A DNA stretch of 64,000 bases from Cyanidioschyzon merolae. Its lineage: Eukaryota. Shown here piece after piece: positions 1-14,523 of the stretch. The stretch lies in assembly GCA_000091205.1 (NCBI GenBank), contig AP006489.2; one strand, written 5' to 3'. The number at the start of each line of letters is the position of its first letter. Position 1 is the stretch's first letter. Below the pieces are notes generated by a model, which worked only from the letters and a program-made list of their open reading frames with translations, was not told the DNA's origin and made no database searches. The translations under genes and the position numbers were made by a program.

Positions 1-9
1 CCCCCCATT
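1..9. repeat. single telomere-like unit CCCCCCATT (complement of AATGGGGGG) at the window edge, followed by AT-rich subtelomere-like DNA (1-600)
   Basis: Sequence begins ccccccatt; only one unit is visible because the window starts here. Bases 1-600 are markedly AT-rich compared with the rest of the window. Confidence 0.25.
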
Positions 10-1346
10 CTCCATCATCCTCATATTTTTATCTTTCTTGTATATCGGATTATCTTTCTGTATTTACCGCTTTTTATTAAAGATTTTTTGTTCCATTTTT
101 TTCTATATCTTTGTTTATAGATTGCAGAATAGATCAGTGCCGGGCGTTGCTATTATAACGGATTCGATTTTGGTACAGCTTCTTAGGTATAAGGCAGGGT
201 TTTTTTTAAATAATGTGCTCTAATCTACGTAGTATTTGGAGGCAAGCTCTGCCTGCATTTTCATAGCACCTTTTTTCAAGACTCTTTTGTCACCCTGCTT
301 TGTCTCCTTAATAATAGAGTACTTTCCGGCATGCTCCTTATATCAACTCTTTTGGCTCTCTTCTTTCTAATTGATATTAGACCAAAAATTTACCATGTTA
401 TAAATCGTTGCTCTGTACTTATTAGCACCCGTTCTAGTCTTTATATCGACTATGATTTGGATGCTTTTTCTAGGGGCGAATCCTTTTCTGTAATTTTTCA
501 TGGGATTAATCATATTTCTGTTTTCATTTCTTACATGTAGTTTATTCTTGATAATCACTCTCGCTCGTTTTCTCTTCGTTTTTTCTCTCCATGTTAGGTT
601 CGCTGTCTTGTACTTGTAATTGTACGCCTTTGCTTTTTTTTGTGGGCATCATCATACCTTACGAGGTTCTAATCGGCAATTTTCATATGTTTACACTTTT
701 GATAGTGAACCTTTCCTTTATCGTTCCTGTGCTTGAGAGGAAATCTCGAGCCGCTATAAACCAATTTTGGCTTTTTCCGCCCAGCGAAAATCTGGTTAAC
801 GTATCATATACTGTAGCAATTCTCCCGCGACTTGAGCGAGTGTATCCCATTTGGGGTACAGGGTGCTTCCCTCCGATCGAATCTCGATTGCGCGCAAATC
901 CGTTCATGAGCATATCCACATACGAAACCGATAATCTCTCACTTCGAGCATATTTCGACGGATGCCTTTGGCACCTGAGAGCACCCATGGAATTCTCAAC
1001 GATCCATGCACCTGTAGAGTTGATCGCATCTTTTTCAATCGGACCGCCTCGGATGCTGTAGCCACGGTTGGTTCTTTTCTCCAGTTCATTTTTTTGACGA
1101 CAAATGTTTCTGACTGGATTTCTCTTTTGCGGAAATCCTCTCTCTGCAAGGCACTCCGCCTTCCCTATTGGTGCTAAGATTTCGTTCTTGGTCCGCATAT
1201 CAAAACAGCCTCCCCCTGGATCTTTTTCGGTTCGGAGAATCCTACTACGAATAATACTCGTAAAAAAAGCCGCAAAGTGTCTGCAAGGCATCTCAGAGTT
1301 GGTCTCCAGTATCAGCTCTCCCCCTTCTTTGCTTCGCAGCGCATTC

Positions 1347-2964
1347 TTAGCAGGCAACAGCTATAGCATTCACGCGACTATCTTTCAGAATACGTGCTGC
1401 ACTTGTCCATACGCGGTACAGTCCTTCTGCATATGGCATGATACCTTCCGTGCTGTCAGAGCCGAGCGCTGATCCCCATATCTTGCGCAAAAGTTCAACC
1501 CGCGCAGGCCACAATACAGCATGTGCCACAGTGTGCGATGCATAGGTCCCGTAGCAACTAACAAGAATTCCGTCTACCACAAGGTGCCCTGAGCGCGTCA
1601 GCGGCGCATAGAGGCCATCACTCGTAACGAGAGTGTCAATTGCCACCACGGGGTCCGGCAGGTGCGCAGCAATGTCGAATAAGGCGTCGCCTATGCGGAT
1701 ATCTTCTGCGAAAACCGCTTCACCTACAGACGTCTCCAGTTCGAGGATCTTCTGTATGTGCTGCTCTTTCTCATGTGAAAGACTCGACACAGCTGTCATT
1801 TTGCGGCCCGGGACTCTCGGGTTCTCGTTCATCCGGTACACCAGATGCTGCCTCGTCAAGCGCAGCTCCTTCCCCGAACGCGTCTTGATCAATAGGATTT
1901 CTGCTGTGGCGCGAGTCTCTTTGTGCAACCACCCCAGAACTGTGTCCTCGACCAGTCGCCCACGTGAATCGACGCCGATTACGGTCATACCCGGGCGCAA
2001 TTCGCTTATCCGCCGCGTCTTGCCAAGACCATCAATAAGCACCGAAGCACCCGCTGGGAAGCAGACCGCAGCGCCGCCACCCACAGAAACCTGTGTAACA
2101 TTTGCTGTCGGTGAAGGCGTCACTGAGACGGTAGGCGTAGGCGTTGCTGAAGTTGTCGGTGTTGGTGTCGGTGTCGGTGTAGGTGTGGGTGTGGGTGTTG
2201 GCACAACTTTCGGAGTCGAGATCGCCACGTGACTCGCTCCACTTGGCAGGATACTTGGAACGCTACTTGTAAAATTGGTAGAGATCTTCGTCACGTTGGA
2301 TACGAGCGCGGTAGGTGCTAAGATAGAGATATTGTAGCTTGCATTCACTGCTGATGTTGCGCTGAATACACGTTGAACGTCGAGGCTGCTTCTCTCGTAC
2401 CAGTCGGCGAACCGCGAGGCTATGGACACGAAGATACTATCGCAGTTATCCGACACAGTGACGTTCGCTCCAGTTCCATTCAGCTTGGTTTCTAAGTTAT
2501 CCTGGAGAACGACCGCAACATCAACACACACGGTCTTGTTCACCACACTGACCACCGCAGAGAATGCAACACCGGCTATTGCCGGGGTAGGCGTAGGTGA
2601 CGGTGTTGCCGTCGGCGTAGGTGTTGGTGTAGGTGTCGCAGTTGGCGTGGTGTCGGTGTCGCAGTTGGTGTTGGCGTCGGTGTAGGTGTCGGTGTCGCGG
2701 TTGTCGTAGGCGTAGGCGTGGTGTGCAGTTGGTGTAGGTGTCGGTGTAGGTGTCGCGGTTGCCGTAGGCGTAGGCGTTGGTGTTGCAGTCGGTGTAGGTG
2801 TCGGTGTAGGTGTCGGCGTTGCAGTTGGCGTAGGTGTTGGTGTCGGCGTTGCAGTTGGCGTAGGCGTTGGTGTCGGTGTCGGTGTCGCAGTTGGCGTAGG
2901 CGTTGGTGTCGGTGTCGGTGTCGCAGTTGGCGTAGGCGTAGGCGTTGGTGTCGCAGTTGGCGTT

Positions 2965-2999
<35 letters not shown>

Positions 3000-3354
3000 T
3001 GCAGTTGGCGTAGGCGTCGGAGTTGCAGTCGGTGTTGCAGTTGGTGTCGCAGTTGGTGTTGCCGTCGGCGTAGGCGTAGGCGTAGGCGTTGGTGTCACAG
3101 TTGGCGTTGGTGTTGCAGTTGGCGTAGGCGTTGGCGTAGATGTTGGTGTCGGTGTCGCGGTTGCCGTAGGCGTAGGCGTTGGTGTTGCAGTTGGTGTAGG
3201 TGTCGGTGTAGGTGTCGGCGTTGCAGTTGGCGTAGGCGTTGGTGTCGCAGTTGGCGTAGGTGTTGGTGTCGGCGTTGCAGTTGGCGTAGGCGTTGGTGTC
3301 GGTGTCGGTGTCGCAGTTGGCGTAGGCGTAGGCGTTGGTGTCGCAGTTGGCGTT

Positions 3355-3395
<41 letters not shown>

Positions 3396-3618
3396 GGCAG
3401 TTGGTGTTGCCGTCGGTGTCGGTGTTGCAGTTGGTGTCGCAGTTGGTGTTGGCGTCGGAGTTGCAGTCGGCGTAGGCGTAGGCGTAGGCGTTGGTGTCGC
3501 AGTTGGCGTAGGCGTTGGTGTCGGTGTTGCAGTTGGCGTAGGCGTAGGCGTTGGTGTCGCAGTTGGCGTTGGTGTTGGTGTCGGCGTCGGTGTCGGGGTT
3601 GCAGTTGGCGTAGGCGTT

Positions 3619-3671
<53 letters not shown>

Positions 3672-4026
3672 TGCAGTTGGCGTAGGCGTCGGAGTTGCAG
3701 TCGGTGTTGCAGTTGGTGTCGCAGTTGGTGTTGCCGTCGGCGTAGGCGTAGGCGTAGGCGTTGGTGTCGCAGTTGGCGTTGGTGTTGCAGTTGGCGTAGG
3801 CGTTGGCGTAGATGTTGGTGTCGGTGTCGCGGTTGCCGTAGGCGTAGGCGTTGGTGTTGCAGTTGGTGTAGGTGTCGGTGTAGGTGTCGGCGTTGCAGTT
3901 GGCGTAGGCGTTGGTGTCGCAGTTGGCGTAGGTGTTGGTGTCGGCGTTGCAGTTGGCGTAGGCGTTGGTGTCGGTGTCGGTGTCGCAGTTGGCGTAGGCG
4001 TAGGCGTTGGTGTCGCAGTTGGCGTT

Positions 4027-4061
<35 letters not shown>

Positions 4062-4892
4062 TGCAGTTGGTGTTGCCGTCGGTGTCGGTGTTGCAGTTGG
4101 TGTCGCAGTTGGTGTTGGCGTCGGAGTTGCAGTCGGCGTAGGCGTAGGCGTAGGCGTTGGTGTCGCAGTTGGCGTAGGCGTTGGTGTCGGTGTTGCTGTT
4201 GGCGTAGGCGTAGGTGTTGGTGTCGGTGTCGCGGTTGCCGTAGGCGTAGGCGTTGGTGTTGCAGTTGGTGTAGGTGTCGGTGTAGGTGTCGGCGTTGCAG
4301 TTGGCGTAGGCGTTGGTGTCGCAGTTGGCGTAGGTGTTGGTGTCGGCGTTGCAGTTGGCGTAGGCGTTGGTGTCGGTGTCGGTGTCGCAGTTGGCGTAGG
4401 CGTAGGCGTAGGTGTTGGTGTTGCCGTCGGTGTCGGTGTCGGTGTTGCAGTTGCCGTCGGTGTCGGTGTCGGTGTTGCAGTTGCCGTAGGCGTAGGTGTT
4501 GGTGTTGCCGTCGGTGTAGGCGTTGGTGTTGCCGTCGGTGTATGCGTTGGTGTTGGTGTTGGTGTCGGTGTTGCAGTTGGCGTAGGCGTAGGTGTTGGTG
4601 TTGCCGTCGGTGTCGGTGTCGGTGTTGCAGTTGCCGTCGGTGTCGGTGTCGGTGTTGCAGTTGCCGTAGGCGTAGGTGTTGGTGTTGCCGTCGGTGTATG
4701 CGTTGGTGTTGGTGTCGGTGTCGGTGTTGCAGTTGGCGTAGGCGTAGGTGTTGGTGTTGCTGTCGGTGTAGGCGTTGGCGTTGCCGTCGGTGTATGCGTT
4801 GGTGTTGGTGTTGCCGTCGGTGTTGGTGTCGGTGTTGCAGTTGGCGTAGGCGTAGGTGTTGGTGTTGCCGTCGGTGTAGGCGTTTTTGTTGC

Positions 4893-4931
<39 letters not shown>

Positions 4932-5297
4932 TGCCGTCGGTGTAGGCGTTTTTGTTGCCGTCGGTGTCGGTGTCGGTGTCGGTGTTGCCGTCGGTGTAGG
5001 CGTTTTTGTTGCCGTCGGTGTCGGTGTCGGTGTCGGTGTAGGCGTAGGCGTTGGTGTCGCAGTTGGCGTAGGCGAAGGTGTCGGTGTTGCCGTCGGCGTT
5101 GATGTTGCTGCTGCCGTAGGTTGTACGATTATCACTTTTTCCAACCAAAACATTACCAGGACGAGCATCAACATAAAGCGAAAAGCTCGTTGGTGTCGAC
5201 GGCGTGCTGTTGTAAACCGCTTCTTCTGACTTAGTGCAGTTCCTTTCGCCATACTTGAGAAGAGATATCTATTTGTAGGCTGATTCGTAGAACCCAT
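1347..5297 (-). CDS. giant Hog-type protein: N-terminal signal-anchor, ~850-aa Thr/Pro/Ala mucin-like repeat, N-glycosylation-rich spacer, C-terminal Hedgehog/intein (Hint) autoprocessing domain
   Basis: Single 1316-aa ORF. N-terminus has a hydrophobic stretch [13 protein letters not shown] long (TPTPTA)n run follows. The C-terminal 238 aa starts with the VCFPAGASV Cys nucleophile context and has a TxxH motif in RLTRQHLV. It also has [21 protein letters not shown] (compare hedgehog [21 protein letters not shown]) and [14 protein letters not shown]. Confidence 0.8.
1350..2066 (-). other. Hint/Hog autoproteolytic module (C-terminal domain of the preceding CDS)
   Basis: Hint motifs as listed above: Cys-Phe start, TxxH, and the SCYG block. 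It is followed by an ARR-like tail (about 60 aa). Confidence 0.75.
2570..5100. repeat. coding hexanucleotide tandem repeat (GGTGTY GGCGTW on the plus strand; ACNCCN, i.e. Thr-Pro, on the minus strand) with ~650-bp higher-order periodicity
   Basis: A near-identical ~400-bp block (for example starting ggtgtcggtgtcggtgtcggtgtcggtgtt gcagttggcgtaggcgtcggagttgcag) recurs at about 2990, 3640 and 4030. All six frames are open as a compositional artefact. Confidence 0.9.
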
Positions 5298-6129
5298 TCG
5301 TTCTTTAAACCAGGAACTTTTGCGCTATACGAAAGCTGGCGGGTACCGTAAGGCTTGCCGTGTTTCCACGTCATTTTCGCGCTGTGACGCGCGAACGGAG
5401 AACCTGTACATAACGCCCATTCCGACGCCGGTGTAACGGAACGGGCGGCTGCTCCTATACCTATGCACCTATAACGGACATTTTTCTCGTGACACCCATA
5501 TGACGTGTAGACACGACAGGGGGCAGCCGACGCCGCCAATTGGTGCGATCGCCACCATCGCGGTGCACGGCGTCTCGCTCTAGCCGCCGCCCTCTGTGGT
5601 ACGGCAACGCCGTTCCGCCTACGTGCAGCGGCCGCACCGGCGCTATGAGCGCCATTGCTGTCGGTTTTGGCAGGCAGTTGGCGCACACGATAGGGCGTAC
5701 GAGACGACCGGAATATCCGAGAGGATGTATAGATAATGTATCATGGAGGTAGGGGGTTGATGGATACCGAACTGCGCACTGAAAAAACACACAAAAAAAA
5801 AGTACGAAGAATAAAATGCACATAATCGGAGAACGCTGGCCTAAGTAAACGTCTTGTCCATGAAAAAATAGAATCGGGCTCGGTGGGCGGACGTTGGTGA
5901 TCAGGCAGTCGACTGACGCGATGCGTCTCTCCGTTGAAGGAAAACGCGATCCTGATCACTTGCGTGCCGCTCTACTATACAAGTTGTATTTGCGTTAGAG
6001 ACGTAGCAAAGTACAGTTTTTCAGTTCATTTGTGCTTAAAACTTCAAGAAAGTGCAGTCACGTGTTGTTTTGCAGTATGCATCAGGGGCGATTAGAGAGC
6101 ATTCTTTTTCAAAAAAAATAACTATCAAA

Positions 6130-8261
6130 AGGAATGTTGTACAAGTGCAAGTCGACGATCCTGGAGTCCCAGGGTCACCGGCTGCCAGAAAGAACAACAA
6201 AAAGTGCTGAGTCCAGAAGAAAAGGAAGAGAAAATGAAGCAAAAAGCGGCCCCAAGTCGGAGGCGGCAGGAAAGACGACTGTACGACCATATGGTGGTGA
6301 AAGCCTGCCTCCTTAAACATATCAAGGATCCCTACGGGGAAAATTGCGAAACGCTATTAGAAATCGTGTCGAGTTGCACACCATGCGTATGATAAAGGCG
6401 TCGTCAGTACAAATGAATCCGGTGAAGGAGATGTACGGAGGCGTGACACACATGGAAACAATCGAGCCTCCCGATGAGTTCTTCGATTAGACCTCTATTC
6501 GTCACCTGAAGCTCGGTACAGAGAAAGCGCGGAAGGAAAATGAGGTAGTCCACGCTCTCCATGAAAACTTCGCGGAATTCCGCTTAAAGGGTAATCGATA
6601 CAAGGGTAACCAGGCTAGCTACAAGTACGTGGCAATGAAGTACATTACGAACCTGAAGAACCATTTGAAAGAGAACCTCGAGCGGTTCATGAAACGCGCC
6701 GTGTTTGCGCTCTCCCCAGGCATCCCTCGCAAAGGAAAAGGGGCGATGATCAATGGCATCACGAAGGATCGTAAGCATAAAGATGAGATCGAATGCGTCG
6801 ACAAGAAGGCGTCAAATGAGAGCACGGATGAGGATTCCGTCATCCGCGCGGCTATACAAGAGCATCGTGCGGTACTGGGGCTGGCGAATCCAACAGAAAA
6901 GATATCATAGTTGAAAAACGATAAGGAAAGATACTATCGCCTCATCCTGCGGTATTTCGTGTTTCTGGACCGAGAGCTCGAACGCGAGGCAGAAATGAAG
7001 CTGGGTGAAGAGACAAATGAAGAGTGGGAGAGACGGAAGGCTGTCCTAATGGGGAAGCGCTTCACCGTCGTTCCATTGTCCAATATCAAGTCACATTTCG
7101 TGACTATCGACTCCAGAATCCTTCACGGCATCATGAAGGAGATCAGTCCGGAGTTCAATGTAAGGAAGATAGAGTTCACTGGCCAAAACCGGGAGACGTA
7201 CTGGAAGAACGTCTTCCATCTCAAACGTCTCAAAGTTAACAAACGAAAGGCATTGACTGGGATGATCGAAACCGATGGAGTGGCTATGTGTGTACACGAT
7301 CGGTGGTCCAACCCATAGCGTCCAGTCCCGTCCTCGATGATGCAAGAAGATGAGAAGGAGGTGGATCCTTCGACGCCGAAAGTGCATGAGAACGACTTTG
7401 TCGTTGGCGCGGACCCCGGAAACACATATATCGTTACCGACGCAGTACCCAAGCGTGCGGAAGATGGTACTGACCGCAACTTATGTCAGAAAGATACGCG
7501 TCTGTTGAGTGTCTAGAGCGGGGTACTCTCGAGGATCGGCAATCATGAATGCGAGGAAGGAAATCAAGACATGGACTGCAGAAATGAAGGATCGCCTAGA
7601 AGCTTTGAGCGAGGTGACGAGCCGAGGAGCCGGCTTTCAAGCGTTTCGGGAATTCATGCTAGTTTGTGTTGCCTACTGGGATGCGCTGTGAGAAGCGTAT
7701 ACAAAGCCTCGGTGGGCTCGTCTGCGAATGAATCTATACTGTGGGAAACCGCGGGCATTTGCCATCTTTTTCAGTCAGTTGAGCGCTTTGAAAGAGGATG
7801 AAAGTCAGAGGCTCGTACTAGCATCCGGAGCAGGACGCTGGAAGACCCAAAAAGGGATTACGCCAGCTCCAACGACAACAACATACAAAGAGTGCGCAAG
7901 GCGTTTCGTCACGATACCCGTTGATGAGTTCCGAACATCGTAAACACACCATGAGCTGGGGTGTACACTTCAGAGAGTCGAGATGGAAAAGTGCCAGAGG
8001 AGCCCCGAGGATATACAAAAGTACGGACCGCTGACGGAGGAGCAAATGGAAAGGAGGGCGACAGTTCGAGGATTGCTTGCATCGGTCAGTTCTACTAGCG
8101 GCGGCAAGAAACGTATGGAGTTTGTGAACCGAGACTTGAACGCCGCCATCAACATCAGACGGTGTGCGATGCTGGAGAGGAGACCTCCAGAGTGGACAAG
8201 AGGGTATTTTGTGGACAACCTTTCAAAGTGTTACTATATGAGAAAGAATTGCAAGCTGTAG
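6130..8261 (+). pseudogene. decayed Fanzor/TnpB-like (OrfB_IS605 / RuvC-like RNA-guided nuclease family) gene, about 700 codons, with in-frame stops and a frameshift
   Basis: Frame 2 reads through TAG codons at 6908-6910 and 7316-7318 and continues into ...[18 protein letters not shown] (RuvC-I GIDPG-like). The frame ends at TAG 7512-7514 and continues in frame 3 (7728-8261). There it reads ...TYKECARRFVTIPVDEFRTS*(TAA 7941-7943)...GC..C (zinc-finger remnant)...KKRMEFVNRDLNAAINIRRC (RuvC-III RDxNAAxNI). Confidence 0.75.
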
Positions 8262-8644
8262 CAGTTGGCTGGTCCAAAACGGCTGCGGGGCGTCTGCACC
8301 TCAGTTCCAGAAGTTTCGTCTAGGGCGGGTTTCTCGCCACTACTTTGCACCACTCGCGGGCGCGTTTTTTTCTGGAAAGGCGTTTGTTGTCGCTGCCGTC
8401 ATCCGAAATACCAAAGCCCTCCGTAGATCCTACTCGCGAAAGGCGCAGTTCTGTGCGCTCTGTATCGCTCTTGAGGCGCTGTACTTGTTATCGTCACTAT
8501 CCGCGCACTCGGTGCCACTAAGCATACTTGTATTCTTCGCTCTAGGTTTGTTCGCTGGTGAGAGTCACTCTAGCGTTCGCGCGACCTTCAGGCAGCGCTC
8601 GCTTGCAGCTTTTCGTACCTCAACGCGAACCCTAGGACTGCACC

Positions 8645-9103
8645 ATGCTTCTGCAGAAACGTCTGCTCACAGAGCTTAGAGAGCTCCGCGAAGACCCGAC
8701 AAACTTCTGCCTGGAGCCCGAGGAAGGCAACCCACTCCGGCTGCAAGGCTACCTGCGCGGACCCGCCGCTACACCTTACGAGGGAGGCTGTTTTCGCGTC
8801 GCGCTGACACTACCGCCTGCGTACCCGCTCGTGCCACCGACAGTGCGCTTTCTGACTCCAATATTTCACCCAAACATCAACTTCCGCACCGGCGAAGTTT
8901 GCCTTGACATTCTGCAGTCGGCGTGGTCGCCAGCCTGGAGCCTTGCGTCGTGTCTGAGGGCGATTCAACTGCTCCTCTCAGAGCCGGAGCCGTCGTCTCC
9001 ACTGAACTGCGACGCTGGGAACCTGCTGCGCTGTGGTGATAAACGAGGCTTCTGGTCGATGGCGCGTATGTACACCCTGCTGCTGGCCACGAGCAACGAA
9101 TGA
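8645..9103 (+). CDS. ubiquitin-conjugating enzyme E2 (UBC fold)
   Basis: 152 aa. HPN motif and catalytic Cys are present in FHPNINFRTGEVCLDILQSAWSPA. Confidence 0.85.
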   Translation: MLLQKRLLTELRELREDPTNFCLEPEEGNPLRLQGYLRGPAATPYEGGCFRVALTLPPAYPLVPPTVRFLTPIFHPNINFRTGEVCLDILQSAWSPAWSLASCLRAIQLLLSEPEPSSPLNCDAGNLLRCGDKRGFWSMARMYTLLLATSNE

Positions 9104-11164
9104 TTATACTAGGTTCATTGCGTAGGCTCGCATAACGACCGATGTGGCAGCACCGTTTCCGCAGTTGCGGATGCGCTTCCACGAAAGATGCGCTATCCAA
9201 TTGTGTACCACATCTTTGCCAGCAGCGGTGAAGGGATGCAAGAGCGTGTACGCAATAGAGCCTGTAATGGTGGGAATGGAGGCATACATCGCGTCGCGGG
9301 TGTATGTCGTACGGTGCGGCGTCCGGGCGAGACTGCATAAAAGCTCTCGTACCCGACGCGCGCTTCAGCTGCAGTCATTATGAATTCGATATCTATGAAA
9401 GTCAAGGGCACGATCGCTTCGGCCTGTAGAGTGACGCGGGGCAATGTTCATGGCAGCAGCTAGGCGCTGTCCGGGACTTGGCCAGGTTCCCGGTTGGCGC
9501 TTTGGCAGGCCTCGAGTGAGCGCGAATACCTGGGTGCGAGCGCTTTGGAGTGGAGAACTGTAATGCACAGTTCTGGAGCTGGTGCTAGGTCTTCTGAAAT
9601 CTTATTTCGTACGTTTTGTCAGAGTTTCATGAGCACACAGCAATTCAAATTTGTTTCAAAATGGCTCTAATTTGTAAGAGCCGCTCTCTATGCGAGAAAA
9701 GCTGGCGCTTACTTCATCCGTGCGGACCGCTCGACACATTCTTTCAACCAATCATGCGCTTCCGAGACGCCAGCGAGGATTCCCATGTGCTGACTCGAAC
9801 TGCGTCAAAACGTGTGCCATTGCCTCCTTTTTTGGTTACGAATAGCCTCGCATTGATGATTCCAATAGCTGCCCAGAAAGAAGCGCATGGGGAGCACATT
9901 GCTAACTACCTGCCATTTGACAACCGATGAGCATAGTAAGCAGCACGACGACGAGCTGCAGCTTTGACAAGGATTTCATAGAATCTTGAACAAAAGTGTT
10001 CGCACGGTACCGCAAAATGTCACAGCTTATCCACATTATCCAATGACCTTATACCTCTATCACGGAAAGCCAAACAGTTTACCTACCTCGTAACCAGACA
10101 AATCGGTACTCCTGTGGCCTCAGGCGATCCGCTGCATAGCACGACTCTAGCGTCGAGTCGGATACCAAGTACAGAGAGCCACATCCTGAGATAGCCTGAC
10201 ATCAACCATGATACAGTTTTGCGTAGCGGGGATGCTGTCGCGCCCTTGCAAGGCGTTGCAATGATGCGGATTCGCGTCGCAGTCTAGCGGCTGCTTATCA
10301 TCTCAGTCAAACGAGCAACGAGGTGTCATGGCAAGTGCGCGTCTCTGGACATGTCGCGATCCAAAAGGCACAACTCCGAGGGCCGCAAGATACGCATTTC
10401 ATCCATCAAGCTCCAGCCTGGAGTTTGCTATCATGCTCGCATCCAAGTATCGCATACACGAGGAACGTCATACACTTAGGATCTTAAGAGAACCCAACTG
10501 ATGCGGATACATTGCGCAGCAGATTACAGAACTGCATGACATGCTTTTCCATAGACTAGAAGCGTGTAGCGCTATGGCTCCAAACGCATCATCTTCCGCA
10601 CGGCTTGTGCGGCCGGTTCCTATGGATTCCCATTTTCTATTGTGCGAACGCCGCTTAGAGCACGGCTTTTACGGATATACATCCACGGGCACGCCAAGTA
10701 TCCATCGATCGATCGGTCGATCACGAGGGCGAACACAAGTCGTCCATCAGAGCATGGCCGCACTGTACCAGCAGCGAGTTGCTGCTCGTCTATGACGGTC
10801 CAGACATCCTTTCGTGTCCGCGTACGCTATTCAATAGCATAAATTGAGACTAGTTCTGCAACGGACCTCGCGGAGCGTGCCACTGCAGATGTTCAGATCG
10901 TACACAATACAAGGATAACCCTTCTGCGTCTGGAGCTGCGTCAAACTACTGCTGGAACGCCGAGCCCCTGCATTCCATCGTTATACACCAGGGTCTCGAG
11001 CCTGCTCCCGAGCATGCGCTGCTTTGCAAGTGCGACAACATTCCTTCAACACTGCTAGGGCACAGAGAGTGAGAGCAGGTCAGGCTCTGACACAAACAAC
11101 CTCCGACAGCTCCTCAGGTTTCAAGCACCTCACATGTCCGTAACCTCGCGGACACCGATCGGCA

Positions 11165-11959
11165 CTATACCTGCTGTGCGAGCTCGTCTCGGAGACGACG
11201 AACCTCAGACTTGAGGCTCAAGTCCATGAACTTGTCGCCGAGCTGCACGGTGAAGCCTCCAATGAGGTCCCGATCAATCCTTGTGATCAGATCAACACGG
11301 GCATCCGGCATATCCGGATAAAAGCGTCGCTGCAGCCGCTGGCGCAAAAGAGCCAGCTGCCACTCTGTAAGCGGCACTGCACTCGTAACGACTGCCTGCG
11401 TTGAGCCCCGCTGCGCAGCGATCACAGACTGGAACGAATGCAGCACCTGCGACACGTGACTCAAGCGCCGGTTATCCGCAAGTAGATCAAGAAGTCTGCG
11501 CACAAAGACTGTTTGCACACCTGCGGCGTCAAGTAGCTTCTCGAGAGCACGCTGCTTCGCTACCTGCGAGCGCGTCGGATCCCGAAGAAACTCTTCGATC
11601 CGGGGATTCTCTCGCAGGAGACGCTCGAGCGCGTCAACGTCACGGTGGACTTCGTTCAGTTGGTTCGCCTTCATCGCGACCCGCAGCAACGAGCCCGCAT
11701 AGCGACCGGCAACACCCGTCAACTGCTTTGTCGCGGCGACTGCGCTGTTGGCGTCAGCGGAAGCCGCCGACCCAGCGCTCGTTGCCAGTCGTCTCCAGTA
11801 CGCGGCACCGTATCTCGCAAGCAGTCCCAGGTTTGATCGTACCATGACGGCGGATAACCAGGCTCGTTCCCGAGCACCGACGCTGTAGCACCCGGTTTCC
11901 GAGTTTCTCGTTGCCGGTCGCTGGTAGCCTGTAGCTGACGCTTCAACGCTGGTGCGCAC
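11165..11959 (-). CDS. mitochondrial ATP synthase OSCP (F1Fo delta/OSCP family) with presequence
   Basis: Resembles the OSCP/AtpH family along its length: GRYAGSLLRVAMKANQLNEV ... AVVTSAVPLTEWQLALLRQRL ... LITRIDRDLIGGFTVQLGDKFMDLSLKSEVRRL. The N-terminus is Arg/Ser/Ala-rich. The true start may be an internal Met. Confidence 0.8.
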   Translation of the reverse strand: MRTSVEASATGYQRPATRNSETGCYSVGARERAWLSAVMVRSNLGLLARYGAAYWRRLATSAGSAASADANSAVAATKQLTGVAGRYAGSLLRVAMKANQLNEVHRDVDALERLLRENPRIEEFLRDPTRSQVAKQRALEKLLDAAGVQTVFVRRLLDLLADNRRLSHVSQVLHSFQSVIAAQRGSTQAVVTSAVPLTEWQLALLRQRLQRRFYPDMPDARVDLITRIDRDLIGGFTVQLGDKFMDLSLKSEVRRLRDELAQQV

Positions 11960-12894: not shown

Positions 12895-14523
12895 GTGTTG
12901 CCTGCAATGAGCGCTGCCCCAGCTGTCAAGTTTTTGAATCCACACGCTGAGGTCTCCCGTCGTGGCTTGGCGTTGCACGCAAGCATCAATGCGGCGGGCG
13001 GGCTCGAGGATATCCTGCGATCGAACCTGGGGCCGCGTGGAACCCTGAAGCTGCTCGTGAGCGGTAGCGGGGAGCTCAAACTTACCAAGGACGGCGCGGT
13101 GCTGCTTCATAACATGGAGATCATTCATCCTACAGCCAAGATCATCGCAAGGGCCGCGACTGCGCAGGATGACGAATGCGGTGATGGTACCACCAGTGTC
13201 GTGCTGCTGGTTGGTGAGATCCTACGCCAGGCGGAACGACCGCTCGTGGACGGTATTCACCCGCGGCACCTCGTGGACGGGATTGAGTTGGCCCGGACCG
13301 AGCTGCTCCGAAGCTTTATTCCCAGGGTACAGATCGCCGTTGATCGCAACGACCGCGAACAGCTCGGACGGGCCGTTCGCTGTGCGCTCGCAACGAAGCT
13401 CTCAGATGACGCTTTGGTAGCGCATATTTCTGACCTCGTTGCCGATGCAGCGCTGATCGTGCATCACGATAACGAACCTATCGATCTCTTCATGGTGGAA
13501 ATAATGACAATAGAGTCGCGCACAGCGATGCACTCGAGCTTGGTGCGAGGTCTGGTTCTAGATCACGGCACGCGGCACCCGGATATGCCAAAGGATCTGG
13601 AGAACGCGTACGTGCTCACCTGCAATGTCTCGCTCGAGTACGAGAAACCCGAGCTAGGTGGCGGGTTCTTCTACTCTAGTGCAGGGCAGAGAGAGCGACT
13701 CGCACAGGCCGAGCGCGAGGCTGTTGCTCATCAAGTTGAAAAAATTTTGCGTCTGAAGCGCCAAGTCTGTGATGAGGTAGGCACGAAAGCGGGATTCCTG
13801 ATCGTCAATCAAAAGGGCATCTCGCCGGATGCACTGGAGATGCTAGCACGCGAAGGAATCATGGCGCTGCGGCGGGCAAAGCGCCGCAACATGGAACGCC
13901 TCGTTCTTGCGTGTGGCGGTACGGCTGTGAATTCCCTGGATGACCTCAATCCATCGGTGCTGGGAAAAGCGGTACGAGTCTTTGAAGAAACCCATGGAGA
14001 GGACAAATATACCTTCGTGGAGGCGCCCCCGACAGCGCGCAGCTGCACGCTCGTGCTGCGGGGCTCCGACAAGCAAACGCTGCAACAACTGAAGGATGCC
14101 GTGCGGGACGGCCTTCATACTGCCCGGCATTTCCTGGATGACGCCTATGTCGTACCCGGAGGTGGGGCGTTCGAGTGTGCAGCGTATCAGCACCTCCAAG
14201 CGTACAGCAAAACTGTCCAGGGTCGAGCACGCCTCGGTGTCCAGACCTTTGCCGATGCGCTTTTGGTGATTCCAAAGACGCTCGCCGAGAATTCCGGCCT
14301 AGACGCACAGGAAACCGTCCTGCAGATGATCGAGGCCCACGAAGCCGGGCGAACGGTGGGTCTGGATGCGCACTCTGGTGAACTGGTAGAGCCGCTCGGA
14401 CGCGGCATCGTTGATTGCTGCCGGCCGAAACGGCACGCGCTTAGTTTGGCCTCGACAATCACCACACAACTACTGCTCGTCGATGAATTGCTCAAGGCCG
14501 GACGTGATACCAGATCGAAATAG
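12895..14523 (+). CDS. CCT6: T-complex protein 1 subunit zeta (CCT6), group II chaperonin
   Basis: Contains NLGPRGTLKLLVSGSGELKLTKDGAVLLHNMEIIHPTAKIIARAATAQDDECGDGTTS. Collinear with CCT zeta over 540 aa and intronless. The likely start is the Met at 12907. Confidence 0.9.
   Translation: MLPAMSAAPAVKFLNPHAEVSRRGLALHASINAAGGLEDILRSNLGPRGTLKLLVSGSGELKLTKDGAVLLHNMEIIHPTAKIIARAATAQDDECGDGTTSVVLLVGEILRQAERPLVDGIHPRHLVDGIELARTELLRSFIPRVQIAVDRNDREQLGRAVRCALATKLSDDALVAHISDLVADAALIVHHDNEPIDLFMVEIMTIESRTAMHSSLVRGLVLDHGTRHPDMPKDLENAYVLTCNVSLEYEKPELGGGFFYSSAGQRERLAQAEREAVAHQVEKILRLKRQVCDEVGTKAGFLIVNQKGISPDALEMLAREGIMALRRAKRRNMERLVLACGGTAVNSLDDLNPSVLGKAVRVFEETHGEDKYTFVEAPPTARSCTLVLRGSDKQTLQQLKDAVRDGLHTARHFLDDAYVVPGGGAFECAAYQHLQAYSKTVQGRARLGVQTFADALLVIPKTLAENSGLDAQETVLQMIEAHEAGRTVGLDAHSGELVEPLGRGIVDCCRPKRHALSLASTITTQLLLVDELLKAGRDTRSK

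Follow-up and report, generated by a model that had tools for sequence, protein, structure and literature searches.

The window, a 64,000-nucleotide stretch of DNA, is the left end of chromosome 7 of Cyanidioschyzon merolae 10D. A single telomere repeat unit, CCCCCCATT, lies at positions 1..9 on the plus strand, is the sole copy in the 64-kb window and marks the chromosome end; on the opposite strand it reads AATGGGGGG, the telomere unit that Nozaki 2007 gives for C. merolae. The presence of a single unit at 1-9 agrees with the Nozaki 2007 assembly, in which chromosome ends have at most 2.5 telomere units. The stop codon of the first gene lies 1346 bp from this end. The gene is a complete minus-strand CDS with its stop codon (1347..5297), an intact ORF of 1316 aa, exactly as the sequence-only reading had described; all features of the gene given below lie on the minus strand. 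On the basis of gene order and description, it is very probably CMG221C (BAM79537.1, "similar to hedgehog protein"). In Dataset 8 of Plant Cell 2026, CMG221C opens the chromosome 7 gene list, and the published order CMG221C, CMG003C (E2), CMG004C (ATP5), CMG005C (CCT) continues in the window with the ORFs at 8645-9103, 11165-11959 and 12895-14523. Five more window ORFs were identical to 10D proteins. The 1316-aa product and four alternative-start versions of it gave no exact match in a 15-billion-protein collection or in the contig index. Together with the telomere unit, the published gene list confirms the claimed position of CMG221C as the first gene from the chromosome end. The subtelomeric 3' flank (556..1346) showed 94% identity to positions 2304-3095 of L007, an environmental K+H locus. 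A transposase-like neighbour gene is broken in 10D.

The N-terminal module (aa 1-61; 5115..5297) consists of a 37-aa basic region, a hydrophobic segment at aa 38-60 (window 5118-5186 in the hydropathy scan) and then QPTAAA|T. In four related loci (L001, L002, L004 and L005), 58 of the 61 residues were identical. The AAA|T site directly past the hydrophobic stretch is a candidate cleavage site. In the Plant Cell 2026 table, Phobius assigns CMG221C a single TM segment, and SignalP-5.0 makes no call. Thus, the hydrophobic N-terminus proposed from the sequence was found; it may be a "signal-anchor", as the single Phobius segment and the missing SignalP-5.0 call would allow, or it may be cleaved at AAA|T. 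If aa 38-60 were an uncleaved anchor, the product would have tethers at both ends.

The Thr/Pro/Ala tract (aa 62-905; 2583..5114) was delimited by composition, TRF and its six open frames. It comprises 844 aa, in agreement with the ~850 aa claimed, and contains 48.8% T, 36.5% P and 11.4% A, with T and P together accounting for 85%. TRF reported periods of 6, 30 and 156 nt with unit matches of 71-73%, indicating an imperfect repeat, and all six reading frames are open over the tract. This is a long Pro/Thr/Ser-rich tandem-repeat domain of the kind that characterizes mucins, and it is presumed to form an O-glycosylated mucin-like stalk. A self-offset identity scan revealed an in-frame internal duplication (2881..4060), in which 2881-3388 recurs at 3553-4060 with an offset of 672 bp; the duplication covers 508 nt with an identity of at least 97% (99.7% in the best 300-nt window) and is recent. 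Every internal duplication of the tract is a multiple of 6 nt. Near the C-terminal end of the tract, a 26-codon patch (aa 858-883; 2649..2726) lies between two compensating frameshifts; over these codons translation leaves the repeat frame, while the TP repeat itself carries on through 2649..2726 in another frame, and the patch is missing from the L002 ortholog. The earlier description had overlooked this patch. With identical QPTAAAT-based boundaries, the tract measured 846 aa in 10D compared with 217 aa in L002, the latter being a metagenome assembly in which the repeat may be collapsed. Three further environmental contigs end inside the tract. In environmental relatives, the architecture is retained, but the TP tract is shorter by a factor of about four. 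The difference between 10D and L002, together with the recent 672-bp-offset duplication, supports the repeat-length plasticity that had been proposed.

Downstream of the tract, a non-repeat middle domain (aa 906-1030, 125 aa; 2208..2582) contains seven N-x-S/T sequons and two Cys residues. After it comes a second TP linker (aa 1031-1078, 48 aa; 2064..2207) that ends with GGGAAV right before the predicted cleavage site. Both elements are absent from the sequence-only reading. The middle domain had no Pfam or NCBIfam match and no homolog in the word-index search, and no mention of it was found in published accounts of the kelch/trefoil/Hint (K/T/H) family. An exhaustive HMMER search returned three matches, which were rejected as homologs; they are summed weak matches to internally repetitive proteins and have just an NVTxSDNCD-like motif in common with the middle domain. 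The single-sequence AF2 model had a pLDDT of 37 and no recognisable fold. Nevertheless, 119 of 124 residues were identical in L002, and identity in L008 and L009 was 87%. The possibility that the middle domain is what remains of a Kelch domain after a frameshift was also rejected, because L007 has no DNA match to the window upstream of 2192 except for the TP repeat, and in L008 the middle domain occurs next to Kelch.

The 238 aa from Cys1079 to the C-terminus form the Hog domain. Its Hint core (aa 1079-1250; 1548..2063) was defined by Pfam, PDB sequence alignment, family alignment, AF2 and Foldseek. Hint was the sole Pfam match of the full protein (PF01079, E=2.5e-36, 125.7 bits against a 29.7-bit cutoff, profile positions 10-207 of 213), a match far above chance. 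A phmmer match to human SHH (E=3.6e-15) spanned CFP through SRR. The AF2 pLDDT of the Hint core was mostly 84-97, and the best Foldseek matches were the Drosophila Hh-C structures 6TYY and 1AT0 (E ~1e-11, target TM-score 0.86). The Pfam score and the Foldseek target TM-score thus bear out the proposed Hint/Hog domain. The Hint core is followed by an SRR/ARR-like tail (aa 1251-1316, 66 aa; 1350..1547) with a terminal -AC, which aligns to the SHH SRR. The tail contains an AH-x4-P-x-R motif (His1259, Pro1264 and Arg1266) whose spacing is identical to that of the SHH HPR motif, in line with the ARR-like tail predicted from the sequence, and from aa 1285 a GI..Y..LY stretch that resembles the HWY hinge. 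The tail helices were predicted by AF2 at low confidence (pLDDT 38-64). The 66-aa tail with its HPR motif and hinge is kept in all cyanidialean copies.

The catalytic residues are conserved over 19 aligned Hog and Hh sequences. Cys1079 in VCFPAGASV (2061-2063) aligns with SHH C198 and Drosophila C258, and the TxxH motif LTRQHLV contains Thr1148 (1854-1856) and His1151 (1845-1847); the sequence-only reading had staked its assignment on the catalytic Cys and His, and both are present. The TxxH His column (H82 in the alignment) is invariant, and the Thr is found in the majority of the 19 sequences; some distant Hogs have Ser at this position. The hedgehog-like C-terminal block was likewise found as claimed, with Cys1248 of the SCY block (1554-1556) at the end of the Hint core. 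Of the anticipated Cys, Thr, His and Asp set, Cys, Thr and His are present, but a literal Asp is absent and is replaced by His1125 (GWLHKET; 1923-1925), whose counterparts in the alignment are SHH D243 and the D46H His of 6TYY. Since a D303H (Hint D46H) swap in Drosophila Hh-C retained both structure and cholesterolysis, the absence of Asp does not count against the domain. In the same 19-sequence alignment, every cyanidialean copy has His in the general-base column, as do a beetle Hh and several protist Hogs; the Asp-to-His replacement is thus common in natural Hogs, and we rejected it as a novelty. Two other assignments were rejected. The protein is not an intein, as the Hint core leads into the SRR-like tail and then the stop codon with no C-terminal splice junction or C-extein, and the NCBIfam intein_Nterm score was 23.8 bits against a cutoff of 24.5. 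It is also not a bona fide Hedgehog, because the HhN "Hedge" signalling domain (PF01085) is absent from the full protein; the true Hh matches P0080 and P0082 do carry PF01085. By sequence and fold, CMG221C belongs to the Hog domain proteins (Hint plus ARR/SRR, non-intein).

The subtelomeric K/T/H family of Cyanidiales has been described before as the 'H' genes of Nozaki 2007, in Cho 2023 and as 'KTH variants: Hog' in Plant Cell 2026, and it is already published that the family is subtelomeric, has TPA linkers and carries Hogs of the non-Hh kind. Orthogroup OG0000014 lists CMG221C. Among the chromosome ends homologous to that of CMG221C is one with CME205C beside CME199C, a paralog of the E2 gene. 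The present result is therefore a correct re-identification of an annotated gene of a known family rather than a discovery. CMG221C resembles the family in its chromosome-end location, its Thr/Pro/Ala linker and its Hog domain; it is telomere-adjacent, and the 844-aa tract and the 48-aa TP(A) linker lie upstream of the Hint domain. It differs in having neither a Kelch nor a trefoil domain (a 'Hog'-only variant), in its 844-aa tract compared with 'up to 365' reported in Cyanidiococcus linkers, and in its N-terminus, where a long basic region and hydrophobic segment replace the short signal peptide of the K+H paralogs. The Hog domain showed 68% identity to 10D K+H proteins and 96% identity to environmental K+H copies. 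L002 has the same architecture at the syntenic locus. L010 is a complete SP-Kelch-TP-Hog gene with a 96.6% identical Hog, and L008 is a degraded Kelch-TP-mid-TP-Hog copy; L008 and L009 are clear pseudogenes. The K+H homology stops in the second TP linker, where the match to L007 (95% identity) breaks off at window 2192. The same Hog module thus sits behind a Kelch domain in other loci, and the match ending in the TP linker at 2192 and the module combinations of L010 and L008 show that modules are shared and support their shuffling. What is new here is the shorter-tract relatives, the Hog domain behind Kelch elsewhere, the in-frame duplication and the compensated frameshift pair.

Taken together, CMG221C is probably a secretory non-Hedgehog 'Hog' precursor that cleaves itself into the Hog fragment and a mucin-like surface coat component. 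In the scheme that we infer, from ER entry and glycosylation to cleavage, adduct, surface location and function, the hydrophobic N-terminus would bring the precursor into the ER, where the C-terminal Hog domain would fold. Cys1079, assisted by Thr1148 and His1151, would attack the Val1078 carbonyl in an N-to-S acyl shift to form a thioester, and His1125, at the position of the Hedgehog general-base Asp46, would activate the hydroxyl of the nucleophile. The nucleophile would most likely be a membrane sterol bound by the helix-loop-helix SRR-like tail, or else water. The C. merolae genome encodes sterol synthesis, predicted via cycloartenol. The 238-aa Hog fragment would thereby be set free, leaving an N-product of ~1078 aa with the 844-residue Thr/Pro/Ala stalk, the 125-aa putatively N-glycosylated middle domain and the short linker, whose C-terminus would be ester-linked to a lipid, or free if hydrolysed. 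This N-product may serve as a heavily glycosylated mucin-like coat component on the surface of the wall-less haploid cell. The family may shuffle its modules (signal, Kelch, middle domain and Hog) through recombination of the TP-coding repeats, with stalk length changing as well. The sequence-only reading had presented self-cleavage of protist and algal Hog proteins as established; for CMG221C, autoprocessing is deduced from the conserved residues, as our literature search found no experiment on cleavage or adduct for any cyanidialean Hog.

The same architecture would also allow the Hog domain only to hydrolyse the thioester without lipid transfer, so that the mucin-like N-fragment is shed as a soluble, secreted glycoprotein or held only by its N-terminal anchor. 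Hydrolysis is the default outcome for Hint domains without a productive adduct, the corresponding region of non-Hh Hogs is termed ARR because the adduct is unknown (Burglin 2008), the C. merolae sterol profile was uncharacterised in the same sterol survey that gave the predicted cycloartenol route, and the tail model is of low confidence. We nevertheless consider hydrolysis alone rather unlikely; all cyanidialean copies keep the 66-aa tail together with its SHH-type HPR motif and hinge, and they also keep a general base at position 46, which is required for transfer to an alcohol and not for thioester formation. It is improbable, too, that the length of the 844-aa tract and the frameshifted patch are reference errors and that the real gene resembles the L002 version with its ~220-aa tract. 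Nozaki 2007 reported misassembled sequence in earlier assemblies and chromosome ends finished by PCR and cloning, the patch is absent in L002, and two indels 78 nt apart could come from sequencing. However, the tract is imperfect (71-73% unit matches) with many unique variants and can therefore be assembled, each internal duplication is a multiple of 6 nt, and collapse of the L002 repeat is at least as likely; the three environmental contigs that break inside the tract suggest that long tracts exist in nature.

CMG221C could, finally, be a decaying chimeric copy in the subtelomere, with a giant TP tract that is no more than a functionless runaway expansion kept open by stop-free frames. The six open frames, the frameshifted patch within the tract, the clearly pseudogenic state of the related L008 and L009 copies, the broken transposase-like neighbour and the published H3K27me3 marking and moderate repression of the family all fit such a by-product. 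Against this, the frame is regained after 26 codons, so that the signal, middle domain and Hog all lie in one frame, and the non-repeat parts contain no stops. Compared with L002, the Hog domain showed 0 nonsynonymous and 3 synonymous changes; its omega was 0.20-0.23 (0.2 versus L010), and that of the middle domain was 0.28 versus L008, showing that both are under purifying selection. The architecture is kept at the syntenic locus, and expression is high in 10D (TPM ~830; ~812-849 in haploid 10D in the published table, with low values in both MS1 samples, to which mapping loss may contribute). The intact ORF over 3.9 kb, the restored frame, the syntenic architecture, the omega values and the published TPM show that the gene is functional, and we regard the decaying-copy explanation as very improbable.

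To our knowledge, no non-animal Hog has had its adduct demonstrated. A bolder and speculative extension of the self-cleaved coat precursor, to which we give little credence at present, is that CMG221C is the mucin of a gastric-mucus-like acid barrier around a wall-less alga living at pH 1-2. It would be sterol-esterified at Val1078 by its own Hog domain, carry a stalk whose length at full extension could reach ~250 nm, have stalk length and head modules varied by recombination in the TP-coding repeats, and be cross-linked by the trefoil-factor-like proteins that sibling subtelomeric genes encode. If so, this would be the first demonstrated lipid-anchoring role of a Hog domain outside animals, and the 25- to 40-fold gap in mapped TPM between 10D and MS1 would represent strain-level contingency expression of coat variants. 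All residue classes that Hedgehog-type sterol transfer requires are retained in CMG221C, among them the HPR motif of the SRR and a general base that is naturally His, and the gene is abundantly transcribed in a genetically tractable, wall-less and nearly intron-free alga. It thus offers a practical system in which to ask whether the ligation of sterols or lipids predated animal Hedgehog, and how surface-protein diversity is built by subtelomeric repeat recombination.

Compared with Hh-C (1AT0, 6TYY and human SHH-C), the Hog domain of CMG221C shares the Hint fold, the Cys nucleophile in a CFP context, TxxH, the YAPLT...SCY block, the helix-loop-helix tail, the HPR motif, the GI..Y..LY hinge and the lack of a C-extein. 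It differs in having His instead of Asp as the general base (as in engineered D46H and some natural Hogs), Val1078 instead of the Gly that precedes the Cys in Hedgehogs, an extra lineage-specific insert of ~30 aa and no HhN. The choanoflagellate Hoglet and nematode T-hog (Burglin 2008) are similar in overall plan, with a secreted-type N-terminus, a long Thr-rich low-complexity stretch and a C-terminal Hog; however, their Thr stretches comprise ~200 and ~70 residues, respectively, compared with 844 in CMG221C, and the CMG221C repeat is strictly TP(A). Burglin 2008 suggested convergence between the Thr-rich stretches of Hoglet and T-hog, and the likeness of CMG221C to both is probably convergent as well. 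Membrane-tethered mucins and the subtelomeric GPI-anchored Ser/Thr-rich wall proteins of fungi have no sequence homology to CMG221C but share a variable-length Pro/Thr-rich repeat stalk, a small globular domain, a subtelomeric contingency-type location and lipid or membrane tethering, for which CMG221C would use Hog-mediated esterification in place of the GPI anchor or TM helix of those proteins.

Positions 1347–5297 of the window (minus strand) contained one unbroken ORF of 1316 aa. Its product began with a strongly basic stretch (aa 1–37) and the sole hydrophobic segment at the N-terminus (aa 38–60), followed by PTAAA|TS; this segment may be either cut at AAA|T or retained as an anchor. A Thr/Pro/Ala (TP) tract (aa 62–905; T 48.8%, P 36.5%, A 11.4%) led into a nonrepeat middle domain with seven N-x-S/T sequons and two Cys (aa 906–1030), a second TP linker ending in VSVGGGAAV (aa 1031–1078), and a 238-aa Hog domain whose first residue was Cys1079 (aa 1079–1316). 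The sequence-only reading had described an anchored, mucin-like protein with a Hint domain; its motifs were all found where it placed them, but it had overlooked the middle domain and the second linker.

Five other ORFs in the window were exact Cyanidioschyzon merolae 10D proteins (BAM79543, 79544, 79546, 79552 [nitrate transporter], and 79556), and the chromosome carrying them is 584,452 bp long. Window bases 1–9 were CCCCCCATT, single copy within the window and the reverse complement of the C. merolae telomere unit AATGGGGGG; in the finished assembly, no chromosome end has more than 2.5 copies of this unit (Nozaki 2007). The inward neighbors E2 (8645–9103), ATP5/OSCP (11165–11959), and CCT6 (12895–14523) agreed with the E, F, and C genes of chromosome termini in the legend of Nozaki 2007. 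In Supplementary Data Set 8 of Plant Cell 2026, the first chromosome 7 row is CMG221C (BAM79537.1, "similar to hedgehog protein"), listed after CMF187C, the last gene of chromosome 6, and before CMG003C (E2), CMG004C (ATP5), and CMG005C (CCT). Because the neighbor order and description match, the ORF was identified as CMG221C, which the same source classes under "KTH variants: Hog" and lists with one Phobius TM segment but without a SignalP call. The exact 1316-aa product, tried with five start codons, had no match in the protein collection; therefore, the annotated CMG221C model may differ.

The Hint/Hog assignment was solid. Pfam Hint (PF01079) matched at 125.7 bits against a 29.7-bit cutoff (E = 2.5e-36; profile positions 10–207 of 213), and phmmer against PDB sequences returned human SHH (7e2i_G, E = 3.6e-15) and Drosophila Hh-C; the alignment began at CFP, took in TxxH and SCY, and extended into the SRR. 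An AF2 model of the Hog domain, built from an alignment of 21 sequences, was confident in its core (pLDDT mostly 84–97); the lineage-specific insert came out disordered, and the tail was modeled as helical with low confidence. In a Foldseek search of the PDB, the Drosophila Hh autoprocessing domain ranked top (6TYY and 1AT0; E ~1e-11, target TM-score 0.86), followed by BIL domains and inteins. A Pfam scan of the full protein found no HhN signaling domain; therefore, this is a non-Hh Hog protein and not a Hedgehog.

To assess residue conservation, the protein was aligned by MAFFT with its cyanidialean paralogs, Hogs of other protists, and true Hedgehogs. The nucleophile Cys1079, His1151, and the YAPLT…SCY block were conserved throughout, and Thr1148 was kept in most sequences, with Ser replacing it in some distant Hogs. 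At the general-base position, where Hedgehogs have Asp (Drosophila D303, Hint D46, SHH D243), the protein had His1125, as did every cyanidialean copy, one beetle Hh, and several protist Hogs. Engineered D303H in Drosophila Hh-C kept structure and cholesterolysis and broadened sterol tolerance (Zhao 2019, as summarized in PMC9163320); since the swap keeps the enzyme active, the absence of Asp is no argument against activity. The 66-aa tail carried H1259-x4-P1264-x-R1266, spaced identically to the SHH "HPR" motif (H374, P379, R381), and a 10-residue counterpart of the SHH "HWY hinge" (GIHWYSQLLY) at the matching place. Every cyanidialean Hog in the alignment (P0001–P0007 and P0075) ended in Ala-Cys (…AVAC, …SAAC, …IAAC; window 1350–1355, minus strand), a conserved Cys that falls on the supposedly discarded fragment.

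The best-supported model is that a secretory precursor processes itself in the manner of Hedgehog. The protein would enter the ER via its hydrophobic N-terminus and undergo an N-to-S acyl shift at Val1078–Cys1079; with His1125 activating it and the SRR-like tail holding it in place, a nucleophile would then attack the thioester. Once the Hog fragment was released, ~1078 aa of glycosylated N-terminal product would remain; its 844-aa stalk, fully extended, could measure up to ~250 nm. Retention of the SRR motifs, together with sterol synthesis via cycloartenol as predicted from the genome, makes a sterol adduct plausible; the main rival is thioester hydrolysis, which would free the N-terminal product with no adduct. 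O-glycosylation of the stalk is assumed; for the terminal regions, the Nozaki 2007 legend names genes for protein O-mannosyltransferase and the dTDP-rhamnose pathway, which is only suggestive.

The repeat was open in all six frames, so openness of the tract is by itself no coding evidence; the coding evidence is that the signal, middle domain, and Hog domain share one frame. The tract contained a recent in-frame duplication (2881–3388 and 3553–4060, minus strand; at least 97% identity), others offset by 180, 402, and 1074 nt (each a multiple of 6), and a compensated frameshift pair leaving 26 non-TP codons (2649–2726, minus strand). Its coding strand was almost entirely ACN, CCN, and GCN with A, G, or T as third base; CCC was absent and ACC rare (12). 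Strand asymmetry was strong across 2001–6000 (GC skew +0.30 to +0.39, AT skew −0.35 to −0.42).

Four hot-spring metagenome contigs (L001, L002, L004, and L005) were collinear with window 4800–9200 at ~95.5% identity; three ended within the tract, and L002 covered the gene from its start into the beginning of the Hog domain. L002 matched 10D at 58/61 aa of the N-terminus, 119/124 aa of the middle domain, and 105/105 aa of the Hog start (three synonymous changes), and the short linker was also present. Between common boundaries, the TP tract was 217 aa in L002 versus 846 aa in 10D, although the repeat may be collapsed in this short-read assembly. Thus, the architecture is kept at the syntenic locus with stalk lengths about fourfold apart, which supports the repeat-length plasticity proposed earlier. 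Next to the Hog gene, a 394-aa gene (6512–8261, plus strand) that is intact in relatives (L001:1832–3016, precomputed Pfam DUF8286) was broken in 10D by in-frame stops (6908–6910 and 7316–7318) and a frame switch near 7488–7513. Nothing in Pfam or NCBIfam matched it significantly (best, Cas12b, E = 0.17). By eye, its 16-residue motif and the EFVNRDLNAAINIRRC of the downstream ORF (7983–8261) resemble the RuvC-I and RuvC-III motifs found in TnpB/Fanzor-type transposon proteins.

Two further contigs, L007 and L010, carried Hog modules 96–97% identical to that of the window. L010 had a complete Kelch + Hog gene, in which a classical signal peptide is followed by Kelch repeats and then by ~290 aa of TP linker; a trefoil-domain gene (L010:253–1152) lay only ~1 kb upstream of it (Hog 96.6% identical), making trefoil and Hog members direct neighbors there. 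The L007 ORF, with Kelch repeats and a linker of ~250 aa, extended past the contig start; it had the 3′ flank in common with the window (94% identity), and homology ended at window 2192, within the short TP linker. A degraded copy (L008:4900–7886 and L009) had the order Kelch, TP, middle domain, TP, Hog, with a short first TP, several stops, a frameshift right after CFP, and P-to-R in YAPLT, demonstrating birth-and-death turnover within the family. Judged from these sequences, modules have evidently been swapped by recombination inside TP-coding DNA, with copies arising and decaying. Nei–Gojobori omega between the window and L007, L010, and L008 was 0.23, 0.20, and 0.38 for the Hog domain. For the middle domain against L008, it was 0.28 (17.5 synonymous and 16.5 nonsynonymous changes), with the noncoding flanks at 94–95% identity; this domain is therefore a genuine constrained coding module. 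It matched no known family in Pfam, NCBIfam, or homolog searches, and no mention of it was found in published descriptions of the family.

"Hedgehog protein" genes have been placed at chromosome ends (Nozaki 2007), and Hog genes are moderately repressed subtelomeric H3K27me3 targets (Mikulski 2017). The family, reclassified as non-Hh Hog, has 17 members in Cz. merolae with mostly haploid-biased expression (Plant Cell 2026). CMG221C reached ~32 TPM in the MS1 diploid, ~20 in the MS1-derived haploid, and 812–849 in the 10D haploid (Plant Cell 2026). The "Hog"-only genes CMG221C and CME205C adjoin the E2 paralogs CMG003C and CME199C, respectively, and behave alike, with TPM of ~20–30 in MS1 (diploid and haploid) and 530–850 in 10D (Plant Cell 2026, Dataset 8); this gap could reflect strain-specific derepression or reads unmapped because MS1 subtelomeres differ.

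The observation was thus confirmed and its first interpretation supported; with the gene already annotated and its family published, it is a correct rediscovery. Residual interest lies in the stalk length, the constrained middle module, the direct evidence of module exchange in TP repeats, and the test system: the alga is tractable and expresses this copy strongly, which would suit tests of what non-animal Hog domains attach. Other red algae also have Hog proteins, and Thr-rich-plus-Hog architectures are known as Hoglet and T-hog (Burglin 2008). Among the kelch/trefoil/Hint subtelomeric duplicates, Thr/Pro/Ala linkers are variable and reach at most 365 aa in Cyanidiococcus (Cho 2023), whereas the stalk here is 844 aa, far exceeding previously described linkers in length.
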